From: Candidatus Omnitrophota bacterium
GTDB lineage: Bacteria; Omnitrophota; Gorgyraeia; 2-02-FULL-51-18
Assembly (NCBI GenBank): GCA_023247915.1
Contig: JAHFFN010000001.1
Span: forward strand, 9,417-73,416
DNA length: 64,000 nucleotides
Reading direction: 5' to 3'
Both the position numbers and the translations under genes were made by a program. Under the pieces are notes generated by a model. The model did not search any database, was not told the origin of the DNA, and saw only the letters and a list, made by a program, of their open reading frames with translations. This document shows, in pieces, positions 36,637 to 58,132 of this stretch. The stretch's first letter is position 1. Each line of letters starts with the position of its first letter.

Positions 36637-36647
36637 AACTGATTTTT

Positions 36648-36759: not shown

Positions 36760-36765
36760 AAAAAC

Positions 36766-36853: not shown

Positions 36854-36885
36854 AAAAACTATTTTAAGTCAGCAAACAAGAATGG

Positions 36886-38257: not shown

Positions 38258-38380
38258 TCCATCCTCGCTAAAATGTTTTGAGCTACTTTACCACTCTAAT
38301 ATATCCGGCGCCACAATTTTTGAGAGAGACAGGCTTCTGGAAAGGGTTAAATCTAGGAGCGAATGGGGGCTCTTTTTGGG

Positions 38381-39378: not shown

Positions 39379-39382
39379 GGAA

Positions 39383-41597: not shown

Positions 41598-42526
41598 ATT
41601 CCCGACTCCTGTTTAAGAATTAATTCATGTCCAAGGCCTCTCATCATTTTAAAGGCATGAAGAATGGCCGGGAAAATAGCATCAAGCGACTCTTCCACTC
41701 CACTGGAAGAGCCGGGCAAAGTCACGATCAATGTTTTTCCTCTCTGTCCCGCTAATCCCCGCGATAGCATCGCGTAGGGCGTGCGGCGCTGGCCAAAACC
41801 GCGCGCGGCCTCCATGATTCCCGGAATCTCGCGCTCAAGAACTTCTGTGACCGCTTCCACCGTAACATCCCGAGGACCCAAGCCCGTCCCCCCCGTGGTT
41901 AAAATAAGATTCACGCCTTTGTCGCAATATTCCAAAAGGCCGTGTTGAATAATTTCTTTGTCGTCCGGAAGAACGGAATAATCCGCCGGAATCCCCAGCG
42001 AGGCAAGCCGTTCTAAAATAATTTTTCCTGATTTATCCTGCCGGGTGCCCCTGGAAGTGCTATCGGAAGTGACAATGACGGCCGCTTTGAAATTGACAGG
42101 TATTTTTTCTTTAAAACTACTTTTTCCGCCGGTCTTTTGGATTAATTTTGTGCCGGTGATTTGAAGTTCCGTATCGATGGGCTTCAGCATATCGTAAATT
42201 GTGAGTGCGGCGACACTGGCCGCCGTCAGTGCTTCCATTTCAACGCCGGTTTTGGCGACCGCTTCGACCGTGGCTTGAATCAGCACTTCTGTTTCTTGAA
42301 CAATGAATTCGATCTCCACCCAATCAATCGCGATTGGGTGACAATAAGGCAAAAGTTCCGGTGTTTTTTTGGCCGCCATCACTCCCGCCGCGCGCGCAAT
42401 CGGTAAAATATCTTTTTTAGGGATGTCATTTTTTTCTAGGCGTCGCAGTGTTTCGGATTTGACCAGAACGCGGCTTTCCGCGACGGCCCGTCTAAGCGTT
42501 TCAATTTTTTGAGTGACTGATCTCAT
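41594..42526 (-). CDS. moaC: Fused cyclic pyranopterin monophosphate synthase (MoaC) / MogA-MoaB-like molybdopterin adenylyltransferase
   Basis: The N-terminal 150 aa are MoaC-like (LPYCHPI..., GVEMEALTAASVAALTIYDM). The C-terminal 160 aa are MogA/MoaB-like (TSDSTSRG...GGTGLGPRD). Confidence 0.75.
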   Translation of the reverse strand: MRSVTQKIETLRRAVAESRVLVKSETLRRLEKNDIPKKDILPIARAAGVMAAKKTPELLPYCHPIAIDWVEIEFIVQETEVLIQATVEAVAKTGVEMEALTAASVAALTIYDMLKPIDTELQITGTKLIQKTGGKSSFKEKIPVNFKAAVIVTSDSTSRGTRQDKSGKIILERLASLGIPADYSVLPDDKEIIQHGLLEYCDKGVNLILTTGGTGLGPRDVTVEAVTEVLEREIPGIMEAARGFGQRRTPYAMLSRGLAGQRGKTLIVTLPGSSSGVEESLDAIFPAILHAFKMMRGLGHELILKQESGI

Positions 42527-42530
42527 GGTT

Positions 42531-43511
42531 TTATCCTCCTACGGCTGTCATTACAAAATCATTGTGAGGCACTTCCGGACTATTTAAAAAATGCTCCTCT
42601 GGCCGGTTGAATACCGTCTCCAAAATATGTTTTTTTATCTCGTTTCGAGAATCGCCTTGCCGTAATAACTTTTTTAAATTCAAATCTTCTTTTCCGTGAA
42701 GACAGGTTTTCATCATCCCATTGGCCTTCAAGCGTAAACGATTGCACTTGGCACAAAAAACATTGGAAAGAGGGCTGATAAATCCTGCCTTCGTCTGAGT
42801 TCCTTCTAAATGAAAAGTTCTTGCCGGTGCGTGAGGATTTTCATCGTCGGGAATCAGATTGTATTTTCCTTCGATCAATTTTTTAGCGATATCCGCGCTC
42901 ATAAAACGACCCGCTCTAACTTCAAGAATCTCATTGGCTGTCGGCATCCATTCAATAAAGCGCAGATCTAGCCGCTTTTTAACCGAAAAATCCACAAGAT
43001 CCATGATTTCGTGATCGTTAACCCCCTTCATCAGGACAGCATTGATTTTTATGGGTGTTATTTTTTGATCCACAGCCTCTTGGATGCCATCCAGCACGTC
43101 CTGCCATTTGTCAGCACCCGTGATCCGTTTAAAATTCTCACGGTCAAGCGTATCCAAACTGATATTGATACGGTCTAAGCCCGCTTTTTTTAAATCACTG
43201 GCGAAATGTTTCAGCAAAACACCATTGGTCGTCATCACCACTTCCCGGATACCCGCAATCTTTTTGACGCGACTCACAAGATTGACCGCGTCTTTTCGAA
43301 GCAAGGGCTCCCCTCCCGTCAAACGCACTTTCCAGATGCCAAGTTCCGCAAAGATAGAAACAATTGTGACGATCTCGTCCTCATTTAATATTTCGTCTTC
43401 CTTAAAAGGATTGAGAGCCCCGTGCGGCATGCAGTAAAAACAACGCAGATTGCAACGGTCAATCAACGACACCCTTAAATAAGTCAGTTCTCGTCCGTAC
43501 TTATCAATCAT
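42531..43511 (-). CDS. moaA: GTP 3',8-cyclase (radical SAM)
   Basis: CNLRCFYCMP radical-SAM cluster motif and a C-terminal second-cluster Cys motif. Confidence 0.9.
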   Translation of the reverse strand: MIDKYGRELTYLRVSLIDRCNLRCFYCMPHGALNPFKEDEILNEDEIVTIVSIFAELGIWKVRLTGGEPLLRKDAVNLVSRVKKIAGIREVVMTTNGVLLKHFASDLKKAGLDRINISLDTLDRENFKRITGADKWQDVLDGIQEAVDQKITPIKINAVLMKGVNDHEIMDLVDFSVKKRLDLRFIEWMPTANEILEVRAGRFMSADIAKKLIEGKYNLIPDDENPHAPARTFHLEGTQTKAGFISPLSNVFCAKCNRLRLKANGMMKTCLHGKEDLNLKKLLRQGDSRNEIKKHILETVFNRPEEHFLNSPEVPHNDFVMTAVGG

Positions 43512-43520
43512 TCGATCCCC

Positions 43521-45077
43521 TTAAAAATTAATGGCCACTTCCATGTAAAACAAATCAGCGTTTCTTTTTGTCGTAAAAAATCGTTTCACGACATCGTCGC
43601 CGTAAAAGTGACTGTAATAGGCCATCACCGTCAAGTCCGGATTGACAGCCCATGTCAGGGTCGTGTCCACCATCCTTCCCAATTGTTTCTGACTATTCGA
43701 AGTGCGTGCCGCAAAGTCATCCGCGACATTGTCATGAATCGCGCCCGACCCGAGATACCAGCGATCATTTTTTTCAGAAAGTTCTACCGCGTGAAACTCT
43801 GTTCTCCACGTCAAAAAGTCCTTCGGCTTCAAGATTAAAGAAACAAAAGCATCTTCGGTATTCATCATGTTGTAAAGAATCGAGAATGAATAAAGCCTGG
43901 CGGTCGGCAACATCTGATGAAAGGTTCCGTGTGTCTCGTCCGCGGGATCGTTGTCACCGGAACCTTGATTAAATCCAACGCGCAACCAAGGCGTCCAAGG
44001 CGCTTGAGTGAGTTGATAACCTGTCTCGGCGGCAAACGCATACGCGGACTGTTCTTGTTCGAACCAACTACCGGTTTGATACGCGCCCCACCCGAGAACA
44101 TCCCACACACCAGAGCCCACCGTATAATCCCCCACCACATGCCCGCCAAAAGTGTAAAGATCAATATCACTTTCACGGCCTGCCAAAATAGTGCGCCCTG
44201 TATTATCCAAGCGTACCGTCGTGGCAGCGATGTTGCGGTGATCGTCGTAGTTATAGTAAAAAAACTGTTCTTCCATTCCTGGAATCAGTCTGTCTTTTTT
44301 GATATTGGCTTCCACGGCCATCACGTCAATATCTTGAATCGAACGCTGAGCTCTTTCCTCAAAACCACCCTGAGTCGGGCTAAAGCCGGCGACGCTGATT
44401 TGTGAAAAATCATCTTCACGCGCGACTTTCCACCCGTCAAAAGAACGTCCGTAGTGTGACCATTCGAAACTACCGATCAAGCGGTCGCCAATGCGTTGGG
44501 TTTTAAGCCAATCGATCTTTTTATCCGTGGATTTCATCTCATTGCCACTGGAATAATTAAAACGGCCGACCGTTTCGGTGACTCCACGAAGCCACTTCAC
44601 GTCTCCAAAAACAGGCTCTAAGAGCTGCCGGGTCTGCTTAATCTCAAGATTTAAGTATTTGATAAATTGGCCATGAGAATTACGGTCTCTTGAATTGGAA
44701 AAATAAAGCGAACCTGAGCCGGCTCCGGCGCTCGTCTTCGTAGGTAGATTTGAGAGCTGTGTGTATTGATGCGTGTAATTGACATTAAAAATATCATGCA
44801 CCCAACGCGCGCCGAACCGAAGTTGATTGGCTAAAAATTCGTAATCATTGTCGGTGGTGGACGTAAAATAGTTCCAAGCTTCATAACGGAGCCGATCCCG
44901 TCCAAAAAATGACACATTGCCCCAATCATTCGGCAAGGTCAACCGGAGATCTTTGAGTGTCACAAATCCGGGATCGGTTTTTAACGAAAAACCTGTCTCT
45001 TTTGCCGATGCCACGGATCCCCACAAACACAGGGTGACTGCTATGACTGCGATATTCCATTTATTTATGATTTTCAT
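43521..45077 (-). CDS. Outer-membrane beta-barrel porin (alginate-export/AlgE-like family)
   Basis: 518 aa. Signal peptide, alternating beta-strand pattern, C-terminal aromatic residue (…EVAINF). Confidence 0.45.
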   Translation of the reverse strand: MKIINKWNIAVIAVTLCLWGSVASAKETGFSLKTDPGFVTLKDLRLTLPNDWGNVSFFGRDRLRYEAWNYFTSTTDNDYEFLANQLRFGARWVHDIFNVNYTHQYTQLSNLPTKTSAGAGSGSLYFSNSRDRNSHGQFIKYLNLEIKQTRQLLEPVFGDVKWLRGVTETVGRFNYSSGNEMKSTDKKIDWLKTQRIGDRLIGSFEWSHYGRSFDGWKVAREDDFSQISVAGFSPTQGGFEERAQRSIQDIDVMAVEANIKKDRLIPGMEEQFFYYNYDDHRNIAATTVRLDNTGRTILAGRESDIDLYTFGGHVVGDYTVGSGVWDVLGWGAYQTGSWFEQEQSAYAFAAETGYQLTQAPWTPWLRVGFNQGSGDNDPADETHGTFHQMLPTARLYSFSILYNMMNTEDAFVSLILKPKDFLTWRTEFHAVELSEKNDRWYLGSGAIHDNVADDFAARTSNSQKQLGRMVDTTLTWAVNPDLTVMAYYSHFYGDDVVKRFFTTKRNADLFYMEVAINF

Positions 45078-45142
45078 TGTTTGTTTTCTCCCGTTGTTGT
45101 TTTAAATAAAAGCGTCCATCCTTGGAACGCCTTTTAAACACC

Positions 45143-45162
45143 GGGAAACTTCTTTATTTCCC
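45143..45162 (-). promoter_or_regulatory. Intergenic RNA hairpin GGGAAAU-AAAGAA-GUUUCCC (hexaloop with A1/G4) between nrtD and the porin gene
   Basis: Palindrome gggaaacttctttatttccc at 45143-45162. It lies 14 nt after the nrtD stop, and a second stem plus U-tract (GGCGU...ACGCUUUUAUUU) follows on the minus strand. Confidence 0.45.
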
Positions 45163-45175
45163 TAATTAAAATGAA

Positions 45176-45988
45176 TTAAGCGGCTACCGAATGGTCGCCG
45201 TAACTCTCGCTCTCCAAAAATCCAATGAGTGTTCCCCGATGAACATAATAATCAGGATGCTCAATCACTTCCTGTTTATTACGGGGTCGCTCAAAATTAA
45301 CTTTTAGAATATTACCTACATGCGCGCGTGGCCCACTCGTCATCATGACGACTCTATCTGAAAGATACAGCGCCTCGTCCACGTCGTGAGTCACCATAAG
45401 AGCCGTTATTTTTTCGGTATTCCAAATATCGAGTAAGATTTCTTGGAGATCCGCGCGGGTGAGCGAATCCAGCATGCCGAATGGCTCGTCCAAAAGCAGT
45501 AATTTAGGCTTTAAAGCGAACGCGCGCGCGAGACTGACACGTTGCTTCATTCCGATGGAAAGTTCGGACGCTTTTTTATTCAAACTGTCCCCAAGACCCA
45601 CACGTTCGAGATAATGCTTACAAACCGCCACGCGCTCTTTATGGGAATCGTTTGGCCTCACCTGATCGACACCAATCAATACATTTTGAAGAGCCGTCAT
45701 CCACGGAAAGAGACTGGGGCTCTGAAACACAACGCCGCGGTCAGGACCCGGTTCCTCAATCAGTCGGTTTTGAAGAATCACCCCGCCGCGGGACACCTTA
45801 TTCAACCCCGCCGCCACCATCAACATCGTGGACTTACCGCAACCGGAATGCCCAATGATGGTGATAAATTCACCCTTCGCGATGCGAAGCTCAAACCCCT
45901 CCACGACAGCAATAGGCCCATTGGGCGAAGGATATTCCTTCGTCGTGTCCGTAAAATGAAGAAATGGATTTAGAAGTTCCATGGACAT
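45176..45988 (-). CDS. nrtD: Nitrate/sulfonate/bicarbonate-type ABC transporter ATP-binding subunit (NrtD-like)
   Basis: GHSGCGKST Walker A, LSIGMKQRVSLARA signature. The start is probably M20/M22 (MSMELLNPF). Confidence 0.7.
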   Translation of the reverse strand: MSMELLNPFLHFTDTTKEYPSPNGPIAVVEGFELRIAKGEFITIIGHSGCGKSTMLMVAAGLNKVSRGGVILQNRLIEEPGPDRGVVFQSPSLFPWMTALQNVLIGVDQVRPNDSHKERVAVCKHYLERVGLGDSLNKKASELSIGMKQRVSLARAFALKPKLLLLDEPFGMLDSLTRADLQEILLDIWNTEKITALMVTHDVDEALYLSDRVVMMTSGPRAHVGNILKVNFERPRNKQEVIEHPDYYVHRGTLIGFLESESYGDHSVAA

Positions 45989-45998
45989 ACTGTCGGGC

Positions 45999-46823
45999 TC
46001 AGGCATAGCAAACTCCACGCTCACTCGCGGTTTCTTCACAAACAACCCGAGGCTTACGAATATTCAAAAGATACTTGGTGATGCCATTACGCAATTTTTT
46101 GTACGATTCATCGGTATTAAATGTTTTTTTGTCGCGAGGCCGTGGAATTTCAACCTGGAAATCAGGCCCCAAGGTCGCGCGAGGTCCCGGATTGAGAGGA
46201 ACAATGCGGTCGGCCAAGAGAATCGCCTCATCAATGTCATTGGTAATCAAAACAACGGTCTTTTTTTCAGTTCTCCAGATTTTTTCAATCTCTATTTGCA
46301 AGGAACTGCGTGTGAGCGCGTCCAGAGCGCCCAACGGCTCATCCAAAAGAAGGATGTCCGGATTCATCGCGAGGGCTCTTGCCACGGAAACGCGTTGGCG
46401 CATGCCGCCCGAAAGCTCATGGGGACGTTTGTACACGGCCGCGGCGAGATTGACCATGCGTAAATATTTCATGATTCGCTCTTCTCGCTCAGTTTTAGAC
46501 TGATCACTAAAAACTTGGTCAACGGCAAGCGCGACATTCCCGTGTACCGTGAGCCATGGCAAAAGAGAGTAGTTTTGAAACACAACGCCGCGGTCGGGCC
46601 CTGGGCCGGTAATAGGTTTTCCTCGCAGTAAAATTTCACCTTCGTCCGGCGCCAATAAACCGCTGATTAATGATATCAATGTGGTTTTTCCGCTTCCCGA
46701 AAATCCCAGGATCGCCAAAAATTCGCCTTCTTCGATAGAAAGGTTAATATTTTTTAAAACATCCACACGCTCGGAACCGTGTCCGTAACCTTTGCTCACA
46801 TTTTTTAATTCTAAAAATGCCAT
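45999..46823 (-). CDS. nrtC: ABC transporter ATP-binding subunit (NrtC-like)
   Basis: GFSGSGKTT Walker [16 protein letters not shown] signature, [11 protein letters not shown]. Confidence 0.7.
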
Positions 46824-46835
46824 CCCATACTCCTT

Positions 46836-47852
46836 TTAGTGCGTCTCAGGCGTGTAACTCACAAGCGAGTGGAGCGTCACCATCACACGATCGAGAATAA
46901 AACCAATGATACCGATGGTGAAAACCGCCACCATGATGCGCGCTAAAGATTGGCTGGAGCCATTTTGAAACTCGTCCCAGACAAATTTTCCAAGACCTGG
47001 ATTTTGTGAAAGCATTTCAGAAGCGATCAGCACAATCCAGCCCACCCCGAGCGAAATCCGGAGACCCGCAAAAATGTAAGGCAGGCTTGACGGGATCACG
47101 ATTTTAAAAATCTTATTAAAAAATCCAAGTTTCAGGACACGCGCGACATTCAAATAATCTTTATCAATCGAGGCCACGCCGAGCGATGTGTTGATGAGAC
47201 TAGGCCAGAGACAACACAAAGACACCGTCACCGACGAAATAATGTACGATTTGGGGAGCCATTCCCTGGGCACCACATAAATCGAGCTGACAATCATCGT
47301 GACGATAGGAAGCCAGGCCACGGGGGATACGGGTTTAAAAATTTGTATCAAAGGCGTCAACGCCATTGAAAGCGTTCTGCTTAAACCGCATAAAATTCCC
47401 AGTGGCACCGCGATCACAGACGCGATTAAAAAGCCGGTGAACACTGTGCGAAGGCTGGTAAAGATCTGATCGAGATAGGTCGGTTTTCCGGTGAATTTCC
47501 GGTTCTTCGCGGGTTCCGAAGGATTTGCCGCCAGTTTTGCCGCGTTTTTCTCGGCTTGAATTTTGTAAAATTCGACTTCTTTTCTTCTTTCTTCTTTGTA
47601 TTCATGGGCGAGACTTCTTACTTGCTCTAGTACCTGAGCCGGTCCTGGGACTCGGCCAAGGTTTGTTTCTATCCCAGCGGCGGCGCCATTCCACACTAAA
47701 AGAAAAATCGCGAATGTCATCACCGGCACCCCGATTCTTAAGAGGATTTCACGAATTTGCTCATTCGCATCCTCACCGGTCGCCAAGCGTATCACGGGCG
47801 TGAACCACCCAAAACCCGCGATGGATAGAACCCGAATCAATTTATTTTTCAT
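46836..47852 (-). CDS. nrtB: ABC transporter permease (NrtB-like)
   Basis: 338 aa with 6 TM segments and a BPD_transp_1 EAA-like loop. Confidence 0.7.
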
Positions 47853-47860
47853 GACACACT

Positions 47861-49189
47861 CTATTTCTTTCCGATGGCAAATTTCTGCAAATATTCGTTT
47901 GGTTTTTTGCCGTCATAAGCGATATTGTCGATGAAATCGCTGGCCGGAGATTCCTTAAAGCCATCCGTTTGGGGAATGTCGGACTCCGCTAGCTTTCCTT
48001 CGGCGACAAGTTCTTTAGCCGCCTCCGTCCAAATGTCCGGACGATACACCTTCTTCGCCAATTCGAAATACCATTCATCCGGCTTGGATTCAATTTGCCC
48101 CCAACGCCTTATTTGCGTCAGCCACCAAATAGCGCCGGAATAATAAGGATAAGTCGTGTTATCCCTGAAAAAAACATCCCAATCCGGCTCGTCACGGATG
48201 TCGTCTTTTTCATATCCAAATTTTCCTTTGAGCATCCGGGAGATGATTTCATAATCGGCACCGACATATTCTGGCTTGGACAAAATTTTCGCGGCTTCTT
48301 CTCTATTCTCGACGCTCGCGTCAAGCCATTTACCCGCTTGAATCAACGCGCGCACGATCGCCTTTAGCGTTTCTGGATTTTTATCAGCCCATTCCTTGGT
48401 GACTCCGAAAACTTTGTCGGGCAGTCCTTTGGCATAAAAATAGCTGGAGGTCACCGGCACCCCGATGCCACGCACAGAAATTTGCGTATGCCAGGGGTCA
48501 TTCACGCAAACGCCTTGCACCGTCCCCGCTTGCAAAACAGCCGGCATTTGCGGAGGAGGGGTTACGGATAGCTGAACATCTCCCTCGGTATAGCCGTTCG
48601 TATCAGTCGGTGTATAAAAACCCGGGTGAATTCCTCCGGCCGCCAACCAATAACGAAAGGAATAGTTATGAACGCCGACAGGATACGTCATGGCAAGTTT
48701 GAAAGGTTTTCCTTCGTTTTTAAATTCTTCCACCACAGGCTTCATGGCATCCGCCTTGATAGGATGCACGGGCTTGCCATCGGATTGCACGGGAATATTC
48801 GGCTTCATTTTTTTCCAAACTTCGTTCGAAACGGAAATTCCCGCTCCATTTTGAGACATCACGTAAGGAACAATAATATGCGCTTTCGTCAGAAGACCTT
48901 CCGTGTGCCCGAGCGGAGCCGGCGCCAGCATATGCGAGCCGTCCAATTCACCGTCAATCACCCGGTCCATCAGAGTCTTCCAGTTGGCTTGAGCTTCAAT
49001 CTTGACATAGAGCCCTTCCGCCTCAAAAAACCCTTTTTCCTTGGCGATGACGATCGGCGCGCAGTCCGTCAATTTGATAAAACCCAGCGTCAACTCGTCT
49101 TTTTCAACTTCCGCGAACGCGACTCTTGTCATCAAACCTAAGCCCATACACACCAGCGAAATAACCATGATCCAAGTTTTATTTCTCAC
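47861..49189 (-). CDS. nrtA: Nitrate/bicarbonate ABC transporter substrate-binding lipoprotein (NrtA/CmpA-like)
   Basis: 442 aa with signal peptide. The length and sequence resemble the NrtA family. Lies in the nasA/nirBD operon. Confidence 0.65.
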
Positions 49190-49296
49190 AACCTACCTCC
49201 CATGGAATCTACTTTCATTTCTTTTTATAAAGAAACCAAATAAAAAAGCATTCACCCGATTTTTCTTCGAGGAACGCCTTCGCCCTAAAACTTTTT

Positions 49297-49316
49297 GGGA
49301 AACGCCTTTATTTCCC
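49297..49316 (-). promoter_or_regulatory. Intergenic RNA hairpin GGGAAAU-AAAGGC-GUUUCCC between nasA and nrtA
   Basis: Near-identical copy of the 45143 motif, about 108 nt upstream of the nrtA start. An AAGGCGTTCC block follows, as at 45143. Confidence 0.45.
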
Positions 49317-49407
49317 TAAATGACTTACAAGAGAATTCTAGCTTTCTTAGATTACGCCCACGTTACGACTGAATGAAGAACATTTGAACATCCCGAATCT
49401 TCGAAAG

Positions 49408-51642
49408 CTAATGCCTTTTTGGCCGTTCCAGAAGCGGCACTGCGATGGAGCGCTCAACACGCACAGCGGCCTGTTTATAGTTGGGTTCTCTGGAAATGGG
49501 GTCGCAATCGCTTACGGTCAAATTGTTCGCGTTGGCCTCCGCGTAATGGAACGGGATAAAGATTTGCCCGGGAGCGATCGTCTCCGTGACGCGGAGAATG
49601 ACACGTTCGACCACTCCGCGCCTGGATTCCACACGCACGTAGTCGCCATGTTGAAATTTCAGATTCTGAGCATCCCGAGGATTCATTTCCACCCAGGCCT
49701 CGGGAGACAGCCGATTGAGCAGAGGAATCGCGCCTGTTTTAGTCCGTGTATGCCAATGTTCGACCGTTCTGCCGGTATTCAACCAAAAAGGGTAGTCCTT
49801 GTCGGGAACTTCGGACGGCGCTTTCCAATCAATAGGCCAAAGTTTCGCGCGGCCGTCCTCCGTCTCAAATTTTCCATCCGTATAAAGCCTCACGGATTCT
49901 TTAGGGGAACGCGTGCTACCTTCCTTAAACGGCCACTGAATCCCACCATGTTTTTCCAGAAGTTCATACGTGATCCCCGAATAATCACACAGCCGTCCGT
50001 GAGTCACCTTTTTCCATTCCTCAAAAGCGTCGCGCGGGCCTTTCCAATGAGGGTAAATGCTTTCCGACACGCCTAGTTCCTTGGCAATCATGAGAAAAAT
50101 ATCAAAATCAGATTTGGCTTCTCCCGGGGGCTCGACCGCTTTGTTCACCTTACTGACCATGCGCTCGGAGTTGGTGTAAGTGCCTTCTTTCTCCCCCCAA
50201 ACCCCCGCCGGCAACACAAGATCCGCGACTCGGCTGGTTGGAATCGGATGATACCCATCTTGAACCACTAGAAATTCAAGGCGTTCCAAACAATCCAAAA
50301 GATACGCTTGATTAGGAAATGAAACCAGTGGATTGGTCGCGATAATCCAAAGTGCTTTAATTTTTCCGGTCAATACCCCTTCGATAATATCGGGGTAAGC
50401 CATGCCACGGGAGGTGGGAATGATTTCCTCTTGGATGCCCCAAAGCGCCGCGAGCTCTTTACGATGCTCGGGATTTTCAAATTTCCGGTAGCCCGGCAAA
50501 CCGGATGTAAAACCAGCCTCCCGCGTACCCATCGCGTTGCACTGTCCTGTGATTGAAAATGGCGAAGCGCCGACGCGCCCGACATTGCCGGTGATGAGCG
50601 CGAGATTACAAATCGCGTTCACCGTTTCGGCTCCCTGCGCGCTATGATTAACACCCATTGTCCAAGCAATAAAAGGAGCGTTGGCACTGCCGTAAAGAAG
50701 CGCGATTTGACGAATGCGCTCAGGCGTAAGACCCGTGATATCACTCACCCGATCCGGTGTCCAAGATTCCAGATCTTCACGCAATTTTTCAAAACCGTTG
50801 GTATGTTTTTCGATGTAGCCGCGGTTAATTTTTTCTTCCTTAATCAGAATATGCATCATTCCGTTTAATAGAGCGATATCACTTCTGGGTTTGATCGGCA
50901 AATGAATATCGGCCATCATGGCCGTTTTTGTCACGCGGGGATCCACCACAATAAGAACTCGTCTTTTGTTTTTCTCAAGACGATAACAAAGAATGGGGTG
51001 ATTATCCGCGATATTGGCGCCGATCAAAAAAACCAGATCCGCTTTTTCCAGATCTTCATAAGAGCCCGGAGGGCCGTCGCTCCCAAATGACCGTTTGTAC
51101 CCGGACGCGGCGCTGGCCATACAAAGCGTCGTATTTCCATCGTAGTTTTTGGTCTTAAAACCAAGTTGCGCAAGCTTGCCAAGTGTGTAAAATTCCTCCG
51201 TGACTAATTGCCCCGTACCGATGATGCCCAAAGATTCTGGGCCGTATTTGTTCTGAATCGTCTGAAAGCGCCCCACCATCTCACGAATAGCCCAGTCCCA
51301 GCCGACCCGTTGGAATCGCTTATTTATTTTGAGTAAAGGGTATTTGGCGCGATTGGGCGCGTTGATCGCGTCATGTTCACAAAGTCCCTTGGGGCAAAGC
51401 CGCCCTTCGTTGACGGGATGGTTCTGGTTGCCTCGCACACTCACCGCTTTTCCTTTTTTGACGCCAATAAAAAGCCCGCAGCCTACCGAGCAATAACCGC
51501 AAGTGGTGGGAATCCACCGGTCTGGAATTTTGGCTTTGGACATGTAACCAAATTGCTCATCCACGTCATAAGCGTACTTTTCTGTTTGAAGATCAATCCC
51601 TAAGCGGCGGCGTACCGACTGAAAAAATGTTTTTGGATTCAA
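49408..51642 (-). CDS. nasA: Assimilatory nitrate reductase catalytic subunit (molybdopterin oxidoreductase)
   Basis: CGYCSVGCGL N-terminal 4Fe-4S motif, MopB family length, C-terminal molydop_binding domain. No twin-arginine signal. Uses a TTG start overlapping the upstream stop. Confidence 0.85.
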   Translation of the reverse strand: MNPKTFFQSVRRRLGIDLQTEKYAYDVDEQFGYMSKAKIPDRWIPTTCGYCSVGCGLFIGVKKGKAVSVRGNQNHPVNEGRLCPKGLCEHDAINAPNRAKYPLLKINKRFQRVGWDWAIREMVGRFQTIQNKYGPESLGIIGTGQLVTEEFYTLGKLAQLGFKTKNYDGNTTLCMASAASGYKRSFGSDGPPGSYEDLEKADLVFLIGANIADNHPILCYRLEKNKRRVLIVVDPRVTKTAMMADIHLPIKPRSDIALLNGMMHILIKEEKINRGYIEKHTNGFEKLREDLESWTPDRVSDITGLTPERIRQIALLYGSANAPFIAWTMGVNHSAQGAETVNAICNLALITGNVGRVGASPFSITGQCNAMGTREAGFTSGLPGYRKFENPEHRKELAALWGIQEEIIPTSRGMAYPDIIEGVLTGKIKALWIIATNPLVSFPNQAYLLDCLERLEFLVVQDGYHPIPTSRVADLVLPAGVWGEKEGTYTNSERMVSKVNKAVEPPGEAKSDFDIFLMIAKELGVSESIYPHWKGPRDAFEEWKKVTHGRLCDYSGITYELLEKHGGIQWPFKEGSTRSPKESVRLYTDGKFETEDGRAKLWPIDWKAPSEVPDKDYPFWLNTGRTVEHWHTRTKTGAIPLLNRLSPEAWVEMNPRDAQNLKFQHGDYVRVESRRGVVERVILRVTETIAPGQIFIPFHYAEANANNLTVSDCDPISREPNYKQAAVRVERSIAVPLLERPKRH

Positions 51643-53354
51643 TGCTTTCCCCCGCTTTCGGTGAAAAAACCTCCGGGAATGTTTTTGGGCACCACCGTGA
51701 CAAAAAAAAGATATCGTCCTAAAAACTCGCTGGAAAGGGCGATCAAGAAAGAAATTCCGGCAAACACGGCCGTTCCTATTCCCGAAACCGCGTCGCGCGT
51801 CAAAAAGGAGCTTAGGTAAAAAAATGGGAGGATAAAACTATTCAAAGTTAAAAGTCCGATGCGTAAAAGAAAATGAACTCGGAAGCGCCGTGTCATCAGC
51901 AGTGCCGAATCATACAATTCAGGATTTTTCCCTTCATTGACTTGAAAAAGTCGTGCGAAAAGCACCAAGAGCTGAGAAAAACCGGCGACCGCCGAAATAG
52001 CAAGCCAACAAAGAACTGGTCCAAGACTCTCGCGCGTCAGATTCTTTCCCATAAACACCAAATGAAGACCATAAACCACCAAACTAAAAAGCGGCCCCAA
52101 AATAAATCCTGTAAGAAAGAAACGTAAAGGCGTGCGGATAGTGTTCCAGGCGGGTCTGGCTGGAACCAGATAAATTTTAGCGCTGGCAAAAATTCCTGCC
52201 ATGCCAGAAAAAGCGGCGATGCCGCCTATGGATACAAGGATCACTTCTGGAAACTCCAAGTGTAGAAAGGTTTCCGCTAAAAGTAAGGCCGCGTATGCCG
52301 CGCCCGCAAAAGAAAATAGAGAGAAAAATAAAATTTCACGGGAAAGCCACGAGCGCCGCCACATTCGAAGCGCTTTGTAAGCGTAGAGCGGACGCCCCAA
52401 ATGAAAAACAGACGCGGATAGGGCTAGCCCCGTCACCGCCAAAATACCCGACGCGCCAAACACCTGAAATTCTTCCAAAGGTTTTAAAAATCCGACGACA
52501 TGCGCCAAAAGACTTCCGAGCCACAGCGTCATCAGTCCTCCCGCCGCCAGTTGAGTCAGTACCGTCATGACGATCAAGGATGTGTGAGGCTCTTCCGGTT
52601 CAACGCGATGGCGGTTTAAGCGCATGGTATCTTCCGGCATCGATTCTGGAAGTGTGATCCGGGTTGTTGAAATAGTGATGCTTGAATCCGGCATATGGGG
52701 CGCATCCGCGGCCGAATGGTCTTTAAGCCACTCGGCGACATTCACTGTTTCGATACGAATCGCTTTTTCTGGGCAGGCCGCCACGCAGGCCGGCGCCATG
52801 CCATCCGCAAGCCGGCTATAACACATATCACACTTGGTAACAATGCCGCGTTCTTTATTAAATTGGGGAACGCCATAAGCACAATTCCAAGTGCAGTAGC
52901 GGCATCCGATACATTCTTCGGCCTTATGACGAACCACACCCGTTTTCGGATCTTTAAGATAAGCGTCTGTCGGACAACCGGTCAAACAAGCCGGATCGAG
53001 ACAATGATTGCAAGCCATGGACATGTGAAATTTCTTAGCATTAGGATAAATGCCGCCTTCAATCTCGCCGACACGCCGCCAGTTGACCGTCGCGGGATTG
53101 TTGTTCTGTTCATTGCAGGCCACCACGCAACACTGACAACCCACACAACGTGACATATCAAAATGAAAACGGTACTGTTCTCCGTCCGCCAGGGGCTCTG
53201 TCGGAATAAGCGACTCTATTGGCTCTACAACACCCAACACGGTGCCGGTGATTTTATTTCCGCGCGGCGCGTAATAGCCTTCCTTACCCACCCTATTTTT
53301 TAAGGGTAGATTGTATTTATCCATCATTTCAAAGATTAAAGACTCTTCCGGCAT
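51639..53354 (-). CDS. Fused 4x[4Fe-4S] ferredoxin (DmsB/NrfC-like) and polytopic membrane anchor (DmsC/NrfD-like)
   Basis: The N-terminal 200 aa carry four CxxCxxCxxxCP-type clusters. The C-terminal 330 aa have about 8 TM segments. Confidence 0.6.
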   Translation of the reverse strand: MPEESLIFEMMDKYNLPLKNRVGKEGYYAPRGNKITGTVLGVVEPIESLIPTEPLADGEQYRFHFDMSRCVGCQCCVVACNEQNNNPATVNWRRVGEIEGGIYPNAKKFHMSMACNHCLDPACLTGCPTDAYLKDPKTGVVRHKAEECIGCRYCTWNCAYGVPQFNKERGIVTKCDMCYSRLADGMAPACVAACPEKAIRIETVNVAEWLKDHSAADAPHMPDSSITISTTRITLPESMPEDTMRLNRHRVEPEEPHTSLIVMTVLTQLAAGGLMTLWLGSLLAHVVGFLKPLEEFQVFGASGILAVTGLALSASVFHLGRPLYAYKALRMWRRSWLSREILFFSLFSFAGAAYAALLLAETFLHLEFPEVILVSIGGIAAFSGMAGIFASAKIYLVPARPAWNTIRTPLRFFLTGFILGPLFSLVVYGLHLVFMGKNLTRESLGPVLCWLAISAVAGFSQLLVLFARLFQVNEGKNPELYDSALLMTRRFRVHFLLRIGLLTLNSFILPFFYLSSFLTRDAVSGIGTAVFAGISFLIALSSEFLGRYLFFVTVVPKNIPGGFFTESGGKH

Positions 53355-53356
53355 TT

Positions 53357-53734
53357 TTATTCGGTTTCTTTAGCGGATGGAATGGCTGACGGGGCAGTGG
53401 AGGGAGTGCAAAGCTTTGAATTTTTAAAATCAACGCAGATTTTTTCTTGAATGACTTTCACGGGATAAACTTTGACCTGCCCTTCACCACCGCTGAGCGC
53501 GCATCCGGTTTTAAGATCAATTTTCCAATTATGGAGAGGACAAAAAACCGACTTTCCCGATACGATGCCATCCGCCAAAGGACCTTGCTTGTGAGGGCAA
53601 TGATTGTCGATCGCTAAATATTCATTTCCCAAATTAAATAACGCGATTTCATAATTTTGATAAATCACGCGTTTTCCTTCTCTGAGTGGGAGTGAGCCCC
53701 TATCCGCTACCGGAACCCATTGCATTGATTCCAT
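53357..53734 (-). CDS. nirD: Nitrite reductase [NAD(P)H] small subunit
   Basis: CPHKQGPLADG...CPLHNWKIDLKTG, a Rieske-like NirD. Confidence 0.8.
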   Translation of the reverse strand: MESMQWVPVADRGSLPLREGKRVIYQNYEIALFNLGNEYLAIDNHCPHKQGPLADGIVSGKSVFCPLHNWKIDLKTGCALSGGEGQVKVYPVKVIQEKICVDFKNSKLCTPSTAPSAIPSAKETE

Positions 53735-56175
53735 TAGAGGCTCCCAATCAAGGCTTCCGCCTCTTTGGGCAAAACCAGTTCAGAGAATTGAAGCGGGTGA
53801 ATATTTTTTTCGGATTCCGTTTTCCAGGGATCCACCGCCTTTGATTTCGCCTTCGCCAAACGATCCAATAATCCTTTTTTTATTTCATCGGAAGCCAACA
53901 CCGTTTCACGGCGGATTGTCTCAAGGCCTACGCGTACCACAAAATCATAAGTTCTTTCCAAGTATTCGCCATTCTCGCGATAATATTGGAAAAAGAGCAG
54001 CGCCGCCTCGAGCGCCTCTTCGGTTGTTTTCACCGTAATCAAAATATCCGCCGCGCGCACGATTTTCCCCGCCCCACCGCCGATCACAACCTGCCAACCA
54101 CCTTCAATTCCAACCAACCCGATGTCTTTAACCGTCGCTTCCGCGCAGTTTCTCGGGCAACCCACGACACCCATTTTTACTTTTCCGGGAGTGTAGAGAC
54201 CTTCAAGAAGCGTTTCAAGTTTAATGCCTGTTTCAATAGAGTTTTGAGTGCCATAACGACAGAAATCAGTCCCCACGCAAGACTTCACCATGCGCACCGC
54301 TTTCGCGTAAGCGTGACCTGAATTCATTCCAAGATCCGCCCACATTTTCGGCAAATCTTCTTTTTTAACACCCAATAGATCGATGCGCTGACTGCCGGTG
54401 ACCTTCACCATCTTCACATTGTATTTTTCAGCGGCATCCGCGATCTTTCTGAGTTCATTGGGTGTTGTCACGCCTCCCTTCATACGTGGAATCACCGAAA
54501 ATGTCCCGTCCTTTTGAATATTAGCGTGAACACGATCATTGATATAACGCGCGGAGCGGTCTTCCTTATGTTCTCCCATCCAAACCTCATCCACCAAAAA
54601 GCTTAAGGCCGGCTTACAAAACGAACAGCCCGTGCTGTTGCCGTAAATATCAAGAATATCTTGAACTGTTTTTAACTTTTGTGTTTGGATCATCGTTCGA
54701 AGTTTTGTTTTCGCGAACGGCACGCAGGCGCACAGCACCTCTTTTTTTTCTTCTTGGAATTCGGCTCCCACCACCGCTTTTAAAATATCCCCGACCAAAC
54801 ACGCGCAGGTTCCGCACCCGCTCGACGCCTTGGTGCAAGCTTTAACCTCTGAGACTGTTTTAAGAGCGTTTTCACGGATGGCCGTGACAATCTGCCCTTT
54901 AGACACTCCGATACAGCCGCAAATCGTATCCGTATCCGGGCGTGACATGACATCCGTCGGGGAGCCAGGCACCGCGGGTGGCACGTCAAAAAGAAGACGA
55001 TGCCGCTTGTCTCCGACGCGATCTTGTTTTCGAATCATTTCTAAAAAACGGTTGGCGTCGGAAGAATCCCCGATAAGAATCGTGCCAATGACACGCTCCT
55101 GATGCACCACCACTTTTTTATAAACTCCGAAAGCATGGTCTTGATAGCTGATGACTTCCTTTTCAGGTTCTCCGTCTTTAAAATCTCCAGCCGAAAAAAG
55201 CTCAATGCCCATTACTTTTAGTTTTGTCGCAAGAGTGGACCCCTCATAAATGGAGCCTTTGTTGCCAGTAATAGTCGCCGCCAGCACTTTCCCCTGTTCG
55301 TACAGCGGCGCCACAAGACCATAAACTTTCTCGCGGTGCTCCACGCATTCGCCGATAGCAAAAATAGACGGATCGCTGGTTTCCAGGAAATCGTTCACCA
55401 CGATGCCTCGATTTATTTTTAAATCGGCCTTTTTAGCCAATTCCACGTTTGGACGGATCCCGCACGCGATCACCACGATGTCCGCCGGAACAATGGATCC
55501 ATCTTTAAAAAGCACTCCCTCGACAGAATCCTCACCCATGATCCGGTTAGTATTTTTATTTAGGAGAACTTCGATTCCCAGTTTTTCAATTTCCCTTTTT
55601 AGAAATTGTCCCCCCACCGTATCCAGCTGGACATCCATCAAGCGATCCATGATATGAACAACGGTTACCTGTTGCCCCTGATTCAAAAGTCCGCGCGCGG
55701 CTTCAAGCCCTAAAAGACCTCCGCCAATAACAACCGCTTTTTTGGCGGATTTACAATGCTCCAAAATTCCGTGTGTATCCGCCATATTTCTGAAAACATA
55801 AACTCCTTTTTTTCGAACTCCCTCAATCGGAGGAATGAAAGGATTACTACCTGTCGCTAAAAGCAAAAGGTCATAAGAAAACGCGTTTCCTTTGTCTGTC
55901 TCCACCGTTTTATTCAAGGCATCAATGTCTATAATTTTTGTGCCTAGATGCACGGTGATATTATTTTTTTTGTACCATTCTTCGGTATTGATATAAATAT
56001 CTTCGATGGATTTTTCACCCGCCAACACAGACGAGAGAAGAATCCGGTTATAGTTGTAATAGGGTTCTTCTGAGAAAACTGTGATTCTAAAATTTGGTTT
56101 CTGTTGGAGTATTTGATCCACACAGGCCATGCCTGCCATGCCATTTCCGACGACAATCAGATGCTTGGGTTTCAT
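53734..56175 (-). CDS. nirB: Nitrite reductase [NAD(P)H] large subunit
   Basis: 813 aa. FAD/NAD Rossmann motifs (VVGNGMAG), BFD-like 2Fe-2S and sirohaem/4Fe-4S nitrite-sulfite reductase domains. Confidence 0.9.
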   Translation of the reverse strand: MKPKHLIVVGNGMAGMACVDQILQQKPNFRITVFSEEPYYNYNRILLSSVLAGEKSIEDIYINTEEWYKKNNITVHLGTKIIDIDALNKTVETDKGNAFSYDLLLLATGSNPFIPPIEGVRKKGVYVFRNMADTHGILEHCKSAKKAVVIGGGLLGLEAARGLLNQGQQVTVVHIMDRLMDVQLDTVGGQFLKREIEKLGIEVLLNKNTNRIMGEDSVEGVLFKDGSIVPADIVVIACGIRPNVELAKKADLKINRGIVVNDFLETSDPSIFAIGECVEHREKVYGLVAPLYEQGKVLAATITGNKGSIYEGSTLATKLKVMGIELFSAGDFKDGEPEKEVISYQDHAFGVYKKVVVHQERVIGTILIGDSSDANRFLEMIRKQDRVGDKRHRLLFDVPPAVPGSPTDVMSRPDTDTICGCIGVSKGQIVTAIRENALKTVSEVKACTKASSGCGTCACLVGDILKAVVGAEFQEEKKEVLCACVPFAKTKLRTMIQTQKLKTVQDILDIYGNSTGCSFCKPALSFLVDEVWMGEHKEDRSARYINDRVHANIQKDGTFSVIPRMKGGVTTPNELRKIADAAEKYNVKMVKVTGSQRIDLLGVKKEDLPKMWADLGMNSGHAYAKAVRMVKSCVGTDFCRYGTQNSIETGIKLETLLEGLYTPGKVKMGVVGCPRNCAEATVKDIGLVGIEGGWQVVIGGGAGKIVRAADILITVKTTEEALEAALLFFQYYRENGEYLERTYDFVVRVGLETIRRETVLASDEIKKGLLDRLAKAKSKAVDPWKTESEKNIHPLQFSELVLPKEAEALIGSL

Positions 56176-56270
56176 AGAGACTTTTTATTGCTTGTCATGA
56201 GCGTTCCTTCTGATTTAAAAAATAAAATCCTTACCATAAACGAGCGATGCTTCTTCGCACCCGTTTAAAA

Positions 56271-56290
56271 TAAGGACGTCTTTATCCTAA
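56271..56290 (-). promoter_or_regulatory. Hairpin AGGAU-AAAGAC-GUCCU plus UUAUUUU between the GAF-ANTAR gene and nirB
   Basis: Same AAAGNN hexaloop closed by U.G as the 45143 and 49297 hairpins, but with a different (covarying) stem. The U-rich tail suggests a terminator/attenuator about 95 nt upstream of nirB. Confidence 0.4.
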
Positions 56291-56307
56291 TTAATTTTTA
56301 AATAAAA

Positions 56308-56997
56308 TTACTTTTCCAGCTCAGCCGCCATCAAGATCGCTTCCGCGATTTCTTTCTGGGGTTTGTTCTTATCCATGCTGGCCTTCTGAATAAAGCGATG
56401 GGATTCTTCTTCGCCCATATGGTATCTCTTCATTAAGATCCGTTTTGCGCTATCCAAAGCCTTTTTCGTATTTAACGCTAACCGTGCTTCCGCTTCCTCC
56501 GAAACCAGCCTCCCGTGTTCCACCATGATCGCCGCTTGGTTGGCAATGGTCTGAACCAGCTGCACCTCTTCCTTAGAAAAGGTTTTTTCTTCTTCCGTGT
56601 AACAATTCAACACGCCGATCACTTTATCGGAAAGCATGAGTGGTACCGATAACAAAGAGCATAAACCTTCTTGCTTGGCGATTTCAGGGTAACTGTAAAT
56701 CGCATCCTGAGTCACATCCGCCACCTGAATCGCTTGTTTTTTGACCACCACGCGACCCGAGATGCTCTGCCCCACCTTAATGGGGGGTTTGTCGCGATAA
56801 GCGGCGCTCAAACTTTGAGTGGCTCTAATCACCAACTCTTCTTTATTTTTAGAGAGCAACATTAAAGAACAAATTTTAGACCCGATCAGTTCCGCCGTCA
56901 TCCCAACCACTTGCTGGAGAATGGCATCCAGATCTTGCTTACCTACCAAGGATCGGCTTATCTGATACAGCACTTCTAGCTGACGTTTTTCTTTCAC
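56308..56997 (-). CDS. GAF-ANTAR antitermination regulator (NasT/NasR-like)
   Basis: 229 aa. N-terminal GAF domain and a C-terminal ANTAR helix bundle (ALNTKKALDSAKRILMKRYHMGEEESHRFIQKASMD). Located next to nirB. Confidence 0.7.
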   Translation of the reverse strand: MKEKRQLEVLYQISRSLVGKQDLDAILQQVVGMTAELIGSKICSLMLLSKNKEELVIRATQSLSAAYRDKPPIKVGQSISGRVVVKKQAIQVADVTQDAIYSYPEIAKQEGLCSLLSVPLMLSDKVIGVLNCYTEEEKTFSKEEVQLVQTIANQAAIMVEHGRLVSEEAEARLALNTKKALDSAKRILMKRYHMGEEESHRFIQKASMDKNKPQKEIAEAILMAAELEK

Positions 56998-57284
56998 TGG
57001 ATGTTCCTGCTTTTTATAGAAGTATACTGGGGCTTGTTACGAATAGATTAACCTGGGGTTAAAATCGGGAGGTGGGGGTTGTGGGATCGCCGGGAGCGGG
57101 ACGTGACGCTGAATACATTTTCTTTAACAAAACCCTAGAAAGTGCGATAATAATTTCCGTAGTAGCCTTCCCTCGAGGGATCAGTCCTACCACTTAAATT
57201 GACCTCGAAGTAGTTCAGCCCAACTGAACGAAAGAAATGACAAAACCTGGTCGTTTACTTCACATTCAAAAAGGGGCTTGAACT

Positions 57285-57821
57285 ATGTCAAAACACATCG
57301 TTTCTGTTATTCAGGGTTCTGCGATTTCTTCAAAAATCTATCTGATCCGCGGAAAGCGCATCATGCTCGATTCTGATCTTGCGGAGCTATACAACGTTGG
57401 CACAAAAGTCATGAATCTAGCTGTTCGGAGAAATCTTAAGCGCTTTCCCGATGACTTTATGTTTCAGCTTTCTCAGGAAGAGACCGAATCTTTGAGGTTT
57501 CAAATTGAAACCTCAAAGAAAGGCCGTGGTGGCCGCCGTTATCTTCCCTATGCTTTTACTCAAGAAGGGGTGGCGATGCTTTCGGGTATTTTGAATAGCG
57601 ACCGAGCCATTGAGGCTAATATCCTCATCATGCGTGCCTTCACCAAGCTCCGGGAAATGGCCTCCGTGAACGAACTTATTCGTCAAAAGATAGATGACCT
57701 TGAGCATAAATATGAAAAACACGAAAAGAAATTTAAAATTATTTTTGAGGCGCTTCGAGAACTATTGGAACCAGCAAAACTATCAAAGAAAAAACCTATT
57801 GGATTCCACACGAAATACTAG
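57285..57821 (+). CDS. ORF6N (KilA-N-like) domain protein
   Basis: 178 aa. IRGKRIMLDSDLAELYNVGTKVMNLAVRRNLKRFPDDFMFQL is the ORF6N domain. The C-terminus is a coiled coil. Confidence 0.6.
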   Translation: MSKHIVSVIQGSAISSKIYLIRGKRIMLDSDLAELYNVGTKVMNLAVRRNLKRFPDDFMFQLSQEETESLRFQIETSKKGRGGRRYLPYAFTQEGVAMLSGILNSDRAIEANILIMRAFTKLREMASVNELIRQKIDDLEHKYEKHEKKFKIIFEALRELLEPAKLSKKKPIGFHTKY

Positions 57822-57834
57822 GGGAGAAAAATGT

Positions 57835-58017
57835 GAGCCGGGCGCGGATCGGCGCCCTCCACTACGTAAGTCTTGTCGACTCCGTCGACAAGCTTACTTC
57901 GTTCCGGGTCGGCCATTCGACGTCGTTGATGGATGGCGTAAACTAATTGAGTTGTCTTTGTGGCAACTCAATTAGTTTACGCTTTTATTTGGGCAACGAC
58001 GTCTCTCTTCGATCCGC
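57835..58017 (-). repeat. tRNA-linked structured element, copy C, bounded by a 17-nt direct repeat of the tRNA-Lys 3' end
   Basis: gagccgggcgcggatcg at 57835-57851 is the complement of the tRNA-Lys 3' end CGATCCGCGCCCGGCTC. The inner end reads (minus sense) GAGCCGG-GCGCG-GATCGAAGAGAG and the outer end GGGCGC-CGATC-CGCGC-CCGGCTC. It shares the ACTTCGTT..CGGGTCGGCCA..TTTGTGGCA blocks with copies A and B, plus two extra long hairpins (a 15-bp stem aaactaattgagttg/caactcaattagttt). Confidence 0.55.
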
Positions 58018-58059
58018 GCCCGGCTCAATTTTTGAACCGAAAAAAAACCCGAAAAAAAT

Positions 58060-58132
58060 TGAGCCGGGCGCGGATCGAACGCGCGACACCTTCCTTAAAA
58101 GGGAAGTGCTCTACCAACTGAGCTACCGGCTC
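58060..58132 (-). tRNA. tRNA-Lys (anticodon TTT)
   Basis: GAGCCGG-TA-GCTC..GAGC-A-CTTCC-CTTTTAA-GGAAG-GTGTC-GCGCG-TTCGATC-CGCGC-CCGGCTC-A. Confidence 0.9.

Follow-up and report, generated by a model that had tools for sequence, protein, structure and literature searches.

The stretch of DNA analysed here, which we call the window, is a 64-kb portion of a Candidatus Omnitrophota genome whose gene content comprises polysaccharide, molybdenum cofactor, and nitrate-assimilation genes. On its minus strand, a tRNA-Lys(UUU) gene is followed by a short noncoding element, element C, and then by a gene for an ORF6N-domain protein that faces the element from the plus strand. Two related elements, copies A and B, lie behind tRNA-Ser genes elsewhere in the window (Table 1). 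A preliminary description considered the locus compatible with a decayed integrative element of which only the ORF6N gene and the att-like repeat module of element C survive. Comparison of the sequences suggests instead that element C is intact and belongs to a seemingly undescribed family of structured RNA elements located downstream of tRNA genes, and that it is not a prophage scar. A limited search of the published literature found no description of this family, which is not proof that none exists.

Along the tRNA strand, on which the coordinates of element C are read, the order is tRNA-Lys, a 32-nt spacer, an inverted arm, a structured interior of ~156 nt, and a direct arm, with both arms derived from the final 18-20 nt of tRNA-Lys. 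The element in full spans 57834-58027 (~194 nt); the 183-nt span first assigned to it (57835-58017) cuts it short, and the inverted arm at 58008-58027 had gone unrecognised. The direct repeat of the tRNA-Lys 3′ end is perfect, as described, and measures 18 rather than 17 nt (57834-57851 and 58060-58077), with 0.06 matches expected by chance even when up to 3 mismatches are allowed. Calling the module att-like was apt insofar as a direct repeat of a tRNA 3′ end is a genuine insertion-type signature. The repeat does not flank the element, as had been proposed: its second copy sits not at the edge of the element but within tRNA-Lys, 32 nt beyond that edge, and the pair bounds only ~210 nt.

The two arms of element C are predicted to pair as a 17-18-bp stem, P1, that closes a three-way-junction fold. 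The minus-strand fold reaches -111 kcal/mol compared to -53.5 +/- 3.9 in shuffles (z -14.9), and the plus strand folds about equally well because the sequence is rich in inverted repeats. In the P2 domain of C, the inner hairpin (57937-57982), which bears a GCC-ACAAA-G.C loop, is elongated to a perfect 19-bp stem pairing 57937-57955 with 57964-57982. The distal hairpin of the P3 domain (57866-57897) is likewise elongated, to 9 + 5 bp with a GGA loop and a single bulge, and the TG[N]CC base of P3 covaries with GCG[N]C. Both hairpins had been reported as perfect and newly gained. The first is indeed perfect, at 19 rather than 15 bp, the second is bulged, and alignment with the family identifies both as lengthened forms of variable helices that all members possess, not as fresh insertions.

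A terminator scan calls nothing on the minus strand of the element. On the plus strand, the P2 hairpin of C followed by TTTTATTT (57936-57982) scores as an intrinsic terminator and sits 115 nt past the ORF6N stop codon. On the RNA strand, AUAAAAG ahead of the P2 hairpin is characteristic of the family, so this antisense terminator-like reading may hold for many copies.

Table 1. Coordinates of element C and its parts, the adjoining genes, and copies A and B in the window.
Feature	Position	Strand	Remarks
tRNA-Lys(UUU) gene	58060-58132	-	ARAGORN; Rfam RF00005, 69.3 bits; CCA not encoded
Spacer between tRNA-Lys and element C	58028-58059	-	U-rich on the tRNA strand, AUUUUUUUCGGGUUUUUUUUCGGUUCAAAAAU; direct reading
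5′ arm (X′) of element C	58008-58027	-	20-nt perfect reverse complement, T54 to discriminator A73; 5′ strand of P1
Junction strand GAAGAGAGA	58002-58010	-	Family consensus CGAAGRGAGC, near-invariant across 57 sequences
P2 domain	57919-58003	-	Outer helix 57994-58003 with 57919-57928; predicted fold, covariation in P2 and P2a
P3 domain	57851-57914	-	Irregular helix with invariant UGGCCGACCCGGA ... AGGGCGCC
3′ arm (X) of element C	57834-57851	-	18-nt perfect copy, C56 to discriminator A73; 3′ strand of P1, then CAUUUUUCU
ORF6N gene	57285-57821	+	PF10543, 109.5 bits against a cut-off of 27.8, E 1e-31
Copy A	~1426-1570	-	12 nt past tRNA-Ser(CGA) (1583-1667); covariance model 66.4 bits
Copy B	~36500-36634	-	Downstream of tRNA-Ser(GCT) (36764-36854); covariance model 65.7 bits

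The arms of copies A and B come from their own tRNAs and not from tRNA-Lys. Those of A match tRNA-Ser(CGA), with an 18-nt 3′ arm and a 16-bp P1 that includes one G.U pair; B has a core near-identical to that of A and decayed arms, in which a 9-nt match is followed by a 2-nt deletion. The interiors of all three share CGAAGRGAGC, GCCACAAAGGC, UGGCCGACCCGGA, and AGGGCGCCGA. The conserved blocks CGGGTCGGCCA (57905-57915 in C) and TTTGTGGCA and the TCGAAGAGAG boundary recognised in the preliminary description are also common to A, B, and C, and only the ACTTCGTT of C fails to align with its supposed counterpart in A and B. ARAGORN finds 4 tRNAs in the window and makes no tRNA or tmRNA call over A, B, or C.

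A three-block pattern was scanned against one genome per GTDB species, which returned 49 loci (loci are numbered with an L below), 7 of which resemble the window elements. These 7 come from 3 Omnitrophota and 2 Planctomycetia metagenome-assembled genomes and lie directly 3′ of a same-strand tRNA; in L049 the start of the contig truncates this tRNA. JGI metagenomes, scanned with a second pattern, contributed ~40 further true loci. The remaining 42 genome matches and ~20 metagenome matches do not lie beside tRNAs and were rejected, as they fall in coding regions and are negative by the covariance model bar one. At E < 1e-8, that model, built from 14 members, detects 60 copies across the true loci; in the window it detects exactly 3. 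On 402 kb of false-positive loci it yields a single weak 18-bit match, at another spot in L024 that is seemingly coding.

Family members measure roughly 130-260 nt and follow their tRNA after ~6 to ~140 nt. Every copy with readable upstream sequence lies 3′ of a tRNA or tmRNA gene and is oriented like that gene. Among the tRNAs, 17 specificities are represented, including Ala, Arg, Asp, Glu, Gly, Leu, Lys, Met, Pro, Ser, Thr, Trp, Tyr, and Val. In L093 (2803-3413) the element follows a tmRNA, and its 3′ arm reproduces the tmRNA 3′ end exactly, CCA included. The tRNA of L102 had been missed outright by ARAGORN, as had those of L054 (7452-7644) and L056 (157-396) because group I introns interrupt them; L059 and L061 showed no tRNA within reach on their upstream side. 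Some spacers hold additional sequence. In L054, ~0.9 kb including an open reading frame (ORF) of 216 aa separates tRNA and element, L059 has an upstream 304-aa ORF that looks Mrr-like by eye, and in both loci a degenerate copy of the tRNA end lies just 5′ of a terminator preceding the element, which suggests later insertions between tRNA and element.

Several settings bear on expression. Elements lie between tRNAs ~10-16 nt apart in L016 and L087, and in L077 (2863-3033; likewise in L065 and L110) the order is 16S, tRNA-Ile, tRNA-Ala, element, 23S, within an rRNA operon. Copies inside tRNA operons and the 16S-23S spacer must therefore be transcribed on the tRNA strand, and an element upstream of 23S cannot be an obligatory terminator. 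Strong terminators stand between tRNA and element in some loci (L013, L049, L093, and L090). Tandem arrays occur in L060, L079, and L056, and L091 has three successive tRNA-element pairs.

The evidence that the core is a structured RNA comes from covariation. Applied to a structure-blind MAFFT alignment of 14 sequences, RNAalifold gives a three-way junction of 42 pairs, and compensatory double changes occur at 30 of these. In this alignment 95.9% of cells are paired, compared to 73% after shuffling of columns and 30-45% after partners were slid by 1-3 columns, and none of 500 shuffles reached the observed values. Across 57 distinct sequences placed on the covariance model, in an alignment that leans towards the model, covariation is seen at 36 of the 42 pairs and pairing in 92.5% of cells. 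Compensatory substitutions on one strand are the generic mark of a structured noncoding RNA. Outside P1, G.U pairs number 21 and A.C pairs 3, and thus the folded strand is the tRNA-sense strand. Invariant nucleotides concentrate at the junction, whose strands read CGAAGRGAGC, UGGCCGACCCGRAG, and AGGGCGCC, and in the lower P3 helix; variation between subclasses falls in the P2 domain and at the tip of P3. The strands joining the helices are one long (~7 nt), one short (~3-4 nt), and one empty, and the empty joint marks the exact start of the tRNA-derived sequence. The 'loop' closed by P1 is ~150 nt, and in many copies a T-rich tract lies 3′ of P1. When the 4227 models of Rfam 15, including hammerhead, twister, HDV-like, group I/II introns, tmRNA, HEARO, and 6S, were searched at gathering score, only tRNAs passed and nothing was called over A, B, or C; at E <= 10 there were only sub-threshold chance matches over hairpins to microRNA and small RNA models.

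The arms differ at every locus and in each case equal the end of the local tRNA. Core and tRNA sequence meet inside the T loop: position C56 opens the direct copy, and the complement of T54 closes the inverted one. Where a tRNA-Pro has a TTCAAAT loop, the junctions read GGGCGC joined to CAAATCC and GGGATTTG joined to AAGAGAG, and the 'CGA' is therefore part of the arm and not of the core. The direct (3′) arm is usually 18-24 nt identical to the tRNA, with CCA present only if the gene encodes it. It can run on into the trailer by 5, 11, 27, at least 40, or 83 nt (L080, L060, L106, L089, and L088), in some cases taking in the spacer and a second inverted arm, such that duplications from C56 span 18 to >100 nt and end anywhere between the discriminator and 83 nt past the tRNA. 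The run-on into the trailer and the dependence of CCA on encoding mean that the source was DNA or a primary transcript. Copying from mature tRNA, as in retrovirus-like priming, was rejected, since neither CCA nor its complement appears unless encoded and the trailer is copied too.

The inverted (5′) arm is 5-24 nt long with a median of ~10, P1 has only ~7-10 bp in about half of copies, and the two arms can decay independently: L027, L041, and L113 combine a perfect 3′ arm with a short 5′ arm. Downstream of 20 tRNAs without a core, no complement of the tRNA's own 3′ end was found above control level, which led us to reject the inverted arm as a prior feature of tRNA loci or an excision footprint. 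Three loci (L088 3380-3930, L106 3500-3960, and L082 2940-3420) show the layout [X-spacer-X′]-core-[X-spacer-X′], in which the tRNA end, the spacer, and all or part of the inverted arm are repeated after the element; this could be a shortened tandem copy or a very long target duplication.

Orthologous loci and near-identical copies speak to gain and spread. At the orthologous frr-tRNA-Lys loci, L113 and L114 carry the element without ORF6N, and the site is empty in L111/L112. The T stem of tRNA-Lys is GAGAG/CTCTC in L113/L114 and GCGCG/CGCGC in the window, and the arms follow the T stem of their own tRNA. On contigs of one metagenome sample, a near-identical core sits behind at least six tRNAs (Lys, Gly, Trp, Arg, Pro, and Val; L060, L079, L080, and L088), and A and B have a common core behind two different tRNA-Ser genes. 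About 20 of 69 tRNAs in the sampled loci have no element. Small ORFs with a GIY-YIG domain (81-93 aa) directly adjoin tRNAs at two loci: that of L112 (4765-5046) follows tRNA-Lys at the element-free orthologous site, and that of L119 (6657-6902) overlaps the end of tRNA-Phe.

We consider it reasonably probable that the family consists of non-autonomous, self-propagating, RNA-structured elements that target the T-loop region of tRNA genes and whose fold serves machinery encoded in trans. In this scheme, the element would address the universally conserved T-loop region, and insertion would duplicate the stretch from C56 to the insertion point. The RNA fold would then be recognised or used by the trans-encoded machinery. 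In full-P1 copies such as C, the end may mimic an acceptor/T-arm minihelix and be trimmed by the tRNA end-processing enzymes. One candidate origin for the inverted arm would be template switching between closely spaced inverted repeats.

The lack of a coding partner beside the elements speaks for this model. HUH enzymes, integron integrase, TnpB, Cas12k, IscB, and DEDD recombinases were all absent from the window and from the flanks of the 46 other element-bearing loci, and a Pfam scan of window ORFs of at least 70 aa turned up no gene for an integrase, recombinase, transposase, or reverse transcriptase. When ORFs of the 46 loci and the window were clustered all against all, the only recurrent groups reflected housekeeping synteny (serS, frr, pyrH, and similar genes) or spurious ORFs lying over the elements themselves. 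An origin from a phage, plasmid, or virus was rejected, because the family pattern had 0 matches among the 2.9 million viral contigs of IMG/VR and blastn against plasmid and phage collections gave no match.

A number of observations weigh against the self-propagating model. No trans-acting enzyme for the elements emerged from the window or from those flanks. Ascertainment is biased as well, every locus having been found via patterns derived from this window. We know of no mechanism that gives both an inverted copy that starts at T54 and a variable-length direct copy that starts at C56; integron attC, IS608, serine-recombinase, and hairpin-transposase schemes, worked through on paper only, were rejected because none gives this pair. 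A plain guide model leaves the tailoring of the 5′ arm to each new tRNA unexplained.

The state of the arms adds to these difficulties. L103, L090, and L085 have a perfect 19-24-nt 5′ arm and a decayed 3′ arm, and in L027, L041, and L113 the 3′ arm is identical to the tRNA though the outer 5′ arm is unpaired with it. In L082, the 3′ arm is identical to the tRNA at 24 of 24 positions and the adjoining duplicated spacer only at ~70%, implying that selection or gene conversion maintains the arm. This upkeep points away from passive target duplication, and a host function could lie behind it.

A role of that kind is the most serious of the alternatives to a self-propagating element, though we hold it to be unlikely. 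The element could be a host-serving RNA that works in cis, as a module for processing or insulating tRNA transcription units, or in trans, as a small RNA resembling tRNA. By mimicking an acceptor/T-arm it would be bound by RNase P, RNase Z, the CCA-adding enzyme, or further tRNA-binding factors, and selection would keep the arms matched to the tRNA. Such a role would fit the identity of the 3′ arm to the tRNA beside a diverging duplicated neighbour, the invariant junction, the T-rich tract after the 3′ arm in many copies, and the presence of copies inside tRNA operons and an rRNA operon. It would also fit the strict co-orientation of >60 copies, though inverted-repeat arms could flip the core. 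Against it stand the empty orthologous sites and the tRNAs that do without an element, the decayed arms of copy B, L062, and L103, the tandem arrays, and the near-identical cores behind many tRNAs in the contigs of one sample. A P1 of only ~7-10 bp in about half of copies does not make a general minihelix mimic, and the copy upstream of 23S cannot act as a terminator.

The conserved junction could itself be an RNA machine acting on the T loop of tRNA genes or transcripts, through which tRNA 3′ ends would be captured or targeted by way of RNA. We regard this as distinctly unlikely. In one variant, a ribozyme would cleave or join exactly at the strand-less joint between core and C56. In the other, a scaffold-plus-3′-guide RNA would place its arm after the universal GTT, like a protospacer after a protospacer-adjacent motif (PAM) or target-adjacent motif (TAM), with the nuclease or transposase encoded elsewhere.

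It is very unlikely that the element works at the level of DNA only, with a single-stranded fold like that of attC, repetitive extragenic palindromic (REP) and bacterial interspersed mosaic elements, or IS200/IS605 ends acted on by a recombinase or HUH nuclease encoded elsewhere and with the RNA irrelevant. The arms do copy the gene and not the mature tRNA (CCA only if encoded, and run-on into the trailer), strong terminators sometimes separate tRNA and element, and the plus strand of C folds about as well as the minus strand. Yet the multi-helix junction, the purine-rich invariant strands, the tandem G.A, and the 21:3 ratio of G.U to A.C are typical of RNA, the known sites recognised as single-stranded DNA are simple hairpins, and no flank holds a gene for an HUH enzyme, integron integrase, or transposase.

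The neighbourhood of element C bears on the island first proposed. The ORF6N gene is convergent with the element and matches PF10543, as reported, and ends 12 rather than 14 nt short of the repeat. By tblastn it is absent from all 46 of the other element-bearing loci, and its absence from the orthologous L113, L114, and L111/L112 bears out the earlier view that it is accessory rather than a conserved neighbour. It has >8000 homologues, the closest of which (75-77% identity) lie in unrelated contexts with no element and no adjoining tRNA. Among these contexts, L116 (4001-6349) has three tandem ORF6N-domain genes beside an Eco47II-type restriction enzyme, a DNA methylase, and Vsr, and others lie beside a truncated resolvase (L117/L118) or an ApeA-HEPN gene (L119). 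Judged from the three close-homologue contexts looked up, ORF6N behaves like a dispersed accessory gene of defence neighbourhoods. The ORF6N gene is thus an unrelated accessory gene at the edge of a variable block, a neighbour and not a part of the element.

That block (38258-57833) separates element C from serS by ~19.5 kb. It carries mobA, moaE, moaD, moeA, tauE, moaC/B, moaA, a porin, a nitrate ABC transporter, a molybdopterin nitrate reductase, Fer4/DmsC, nirD, nirB, a GAF-ANTAR regulator, and ORF6N. In the relatives L113, L114, and L111/L112, serS directly follows the tRNA-Lys region, and synteny with them breaks ~12 nt past the 3′ arm of element C. A comparison with relatives had been proposed as the way to reveal a larger island carrying an integrase; it does reveal ~19.5 kb that they lack between tRNA-Lys and serS, but the window holds no integrase and no further copy of the tRNA-Lys end that would mark the far boundary. 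That a decayed integrative island left ORF6N and the att-like module behind is hardly credible: the direct repeat of the tRNA 3′ end, the scattered and often defence-linked occurrence of ORF6N, and the ~19.5 kb absent from relatives speak for it, yet element and gene each occur without the other (the element at the orthologous site and ~60 further sites behind many kinds of tRNA), no integrase or distal att copy is present in the window, and an att scar leaves the inverted arm and the covarying fold unexplained.

A second, unrelated conserved hairpin module of ~120 nt lies between tRNA-Ser(GCT) and copy B (36647-36763, minus strand). Alignment with the spacers of L027 (~1996-2121, minus strand), L113 (2381-2500), and L114 (716-835) is the evidence for it, and a variant occurs in L085. 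The module opens with a T run, closes with an A run, has a long closing stem that covaries, and bears the motifs GCTCATCTAC..CGTTGC..GCCTCC..TTCGCGCCTTG.A.CTGAGC. It has no Rfam match.

None of the known systems compared here accommodates the tRNA-downstream element, which lacks a defining property of each. Islands and prophages that integrate at tRNA genes through the att sites of tyrosine integrases use the same target, from the T loop to the 3′ end of tRNA and tmRNA genes, and likewise leave the tRNA intact with a direct repeat of its segment flanking the insert. The element differs in having no integrase or cargo, in its size of only ~130-260 nt, in its extra inverted copy of the tRNA end, in a duplication of 18 to >100 nt, and in the covarying RNA fold inside. 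An island lineage with its fixed attP keeps to one tRNA, whereas the element core occurs behind 17 specificities and tmRNA. Miniature inverted-repeat transposable elements (MITEs) and REP repeats are similarly short and noncoding, occur in many copies that spread within a genome, and have terminal inverted repeats around a foldable interior. MITEs, however, inherit their inverted repeats from a parent insertion sequence and duplicate a target of fixed length, whereas the termini of the element are remade from each local tRNA and its duplication varies; its place and orientation relative to the tRNA are strict, and in place of a simple hairpin it has a complex, conserved junction.

Guide RNAs are carried at the ends of some transposons, as with the omega RNA or reRNA of TnpB in IS200/IS605 elements and the delocalised CRISPR RNA of type V-K CRISPR-associated transposons, which home to tRNA genes. 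There, too, a structured scaffold is followed by ~18-24 nt at the 3′ side that match the adjacent target. The copy in the element starts after the T-loop GTT, in the position of a 5′ PAM/TAM, and this 'guide' changes with the site. Unlike those systems, the element has no TnpB, Cas12k, or transposase nearby and no Rfam scaffold match, and its 'guide' is a duplicate rather than the natural flank and is partly masked by the 5′ arm. Retron noncoding RNA, IS110 bridge RNA, and TnpB-IscB omega RNA adjoin a partner gene, and no such gene is present in the window or recurrent in the 46 flanks.

With tRNA-like ends, such as the tmRNA domain, viral ends, and minihelices, the elements share a closing helix that in A and C equals acceptor plus T stem (12 bp) and ends at the discriminator, making it a plausible, predicted substrate for RNase P, RNase Z, and the CCA-adding enzyme. 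They differ in lacking a T loop and any ARAGORN or Rfam call, about half of copies pair only the T-stem part, and the sequence of the closing helix is that of whichever tRNA lies upstream. Hammerhead ribozymes and group I introns recall the element in the three-helix junction layout and in a 5′ arm that pairs with tRNA sequence like an internal guide. The consensus nucleotides are absent, nothing matches in Rfam at E <= 10, and the element follows the tRNA; a hammerhead-like reading of the junction was rejected, the topology being similar and the consensus nucleotides missing.

If the self-propagating model is correct, annotators would be cautioned against taking a tRNA-end repeat alone as evidence of an integrase-driven island, and a sizeable group of uncultured bacteria, among them Omnitrophota and Planctomycetia, would carry an unrecognised class of structured RNA elements that colonises the 3′ side of tRNA, tmRNA, and rRNA-operon tRNA genes and rebuilds its termini for each target. 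This would explain intergenic 'att-like' repeats at tRNAs that are otherwise taken for prophage scars. The class would also constitute a natural system able to address any tRNA gene via the universal T loop, and its large covarying fold with an invariant junction would be a candidate for new RNA catalysis or RNA-guided DNA targeting. Were the junction itself to act as an RNA machine, the family would represent a new RNA-based mobile element whose landing pad is the most conserved sequence of the cell.

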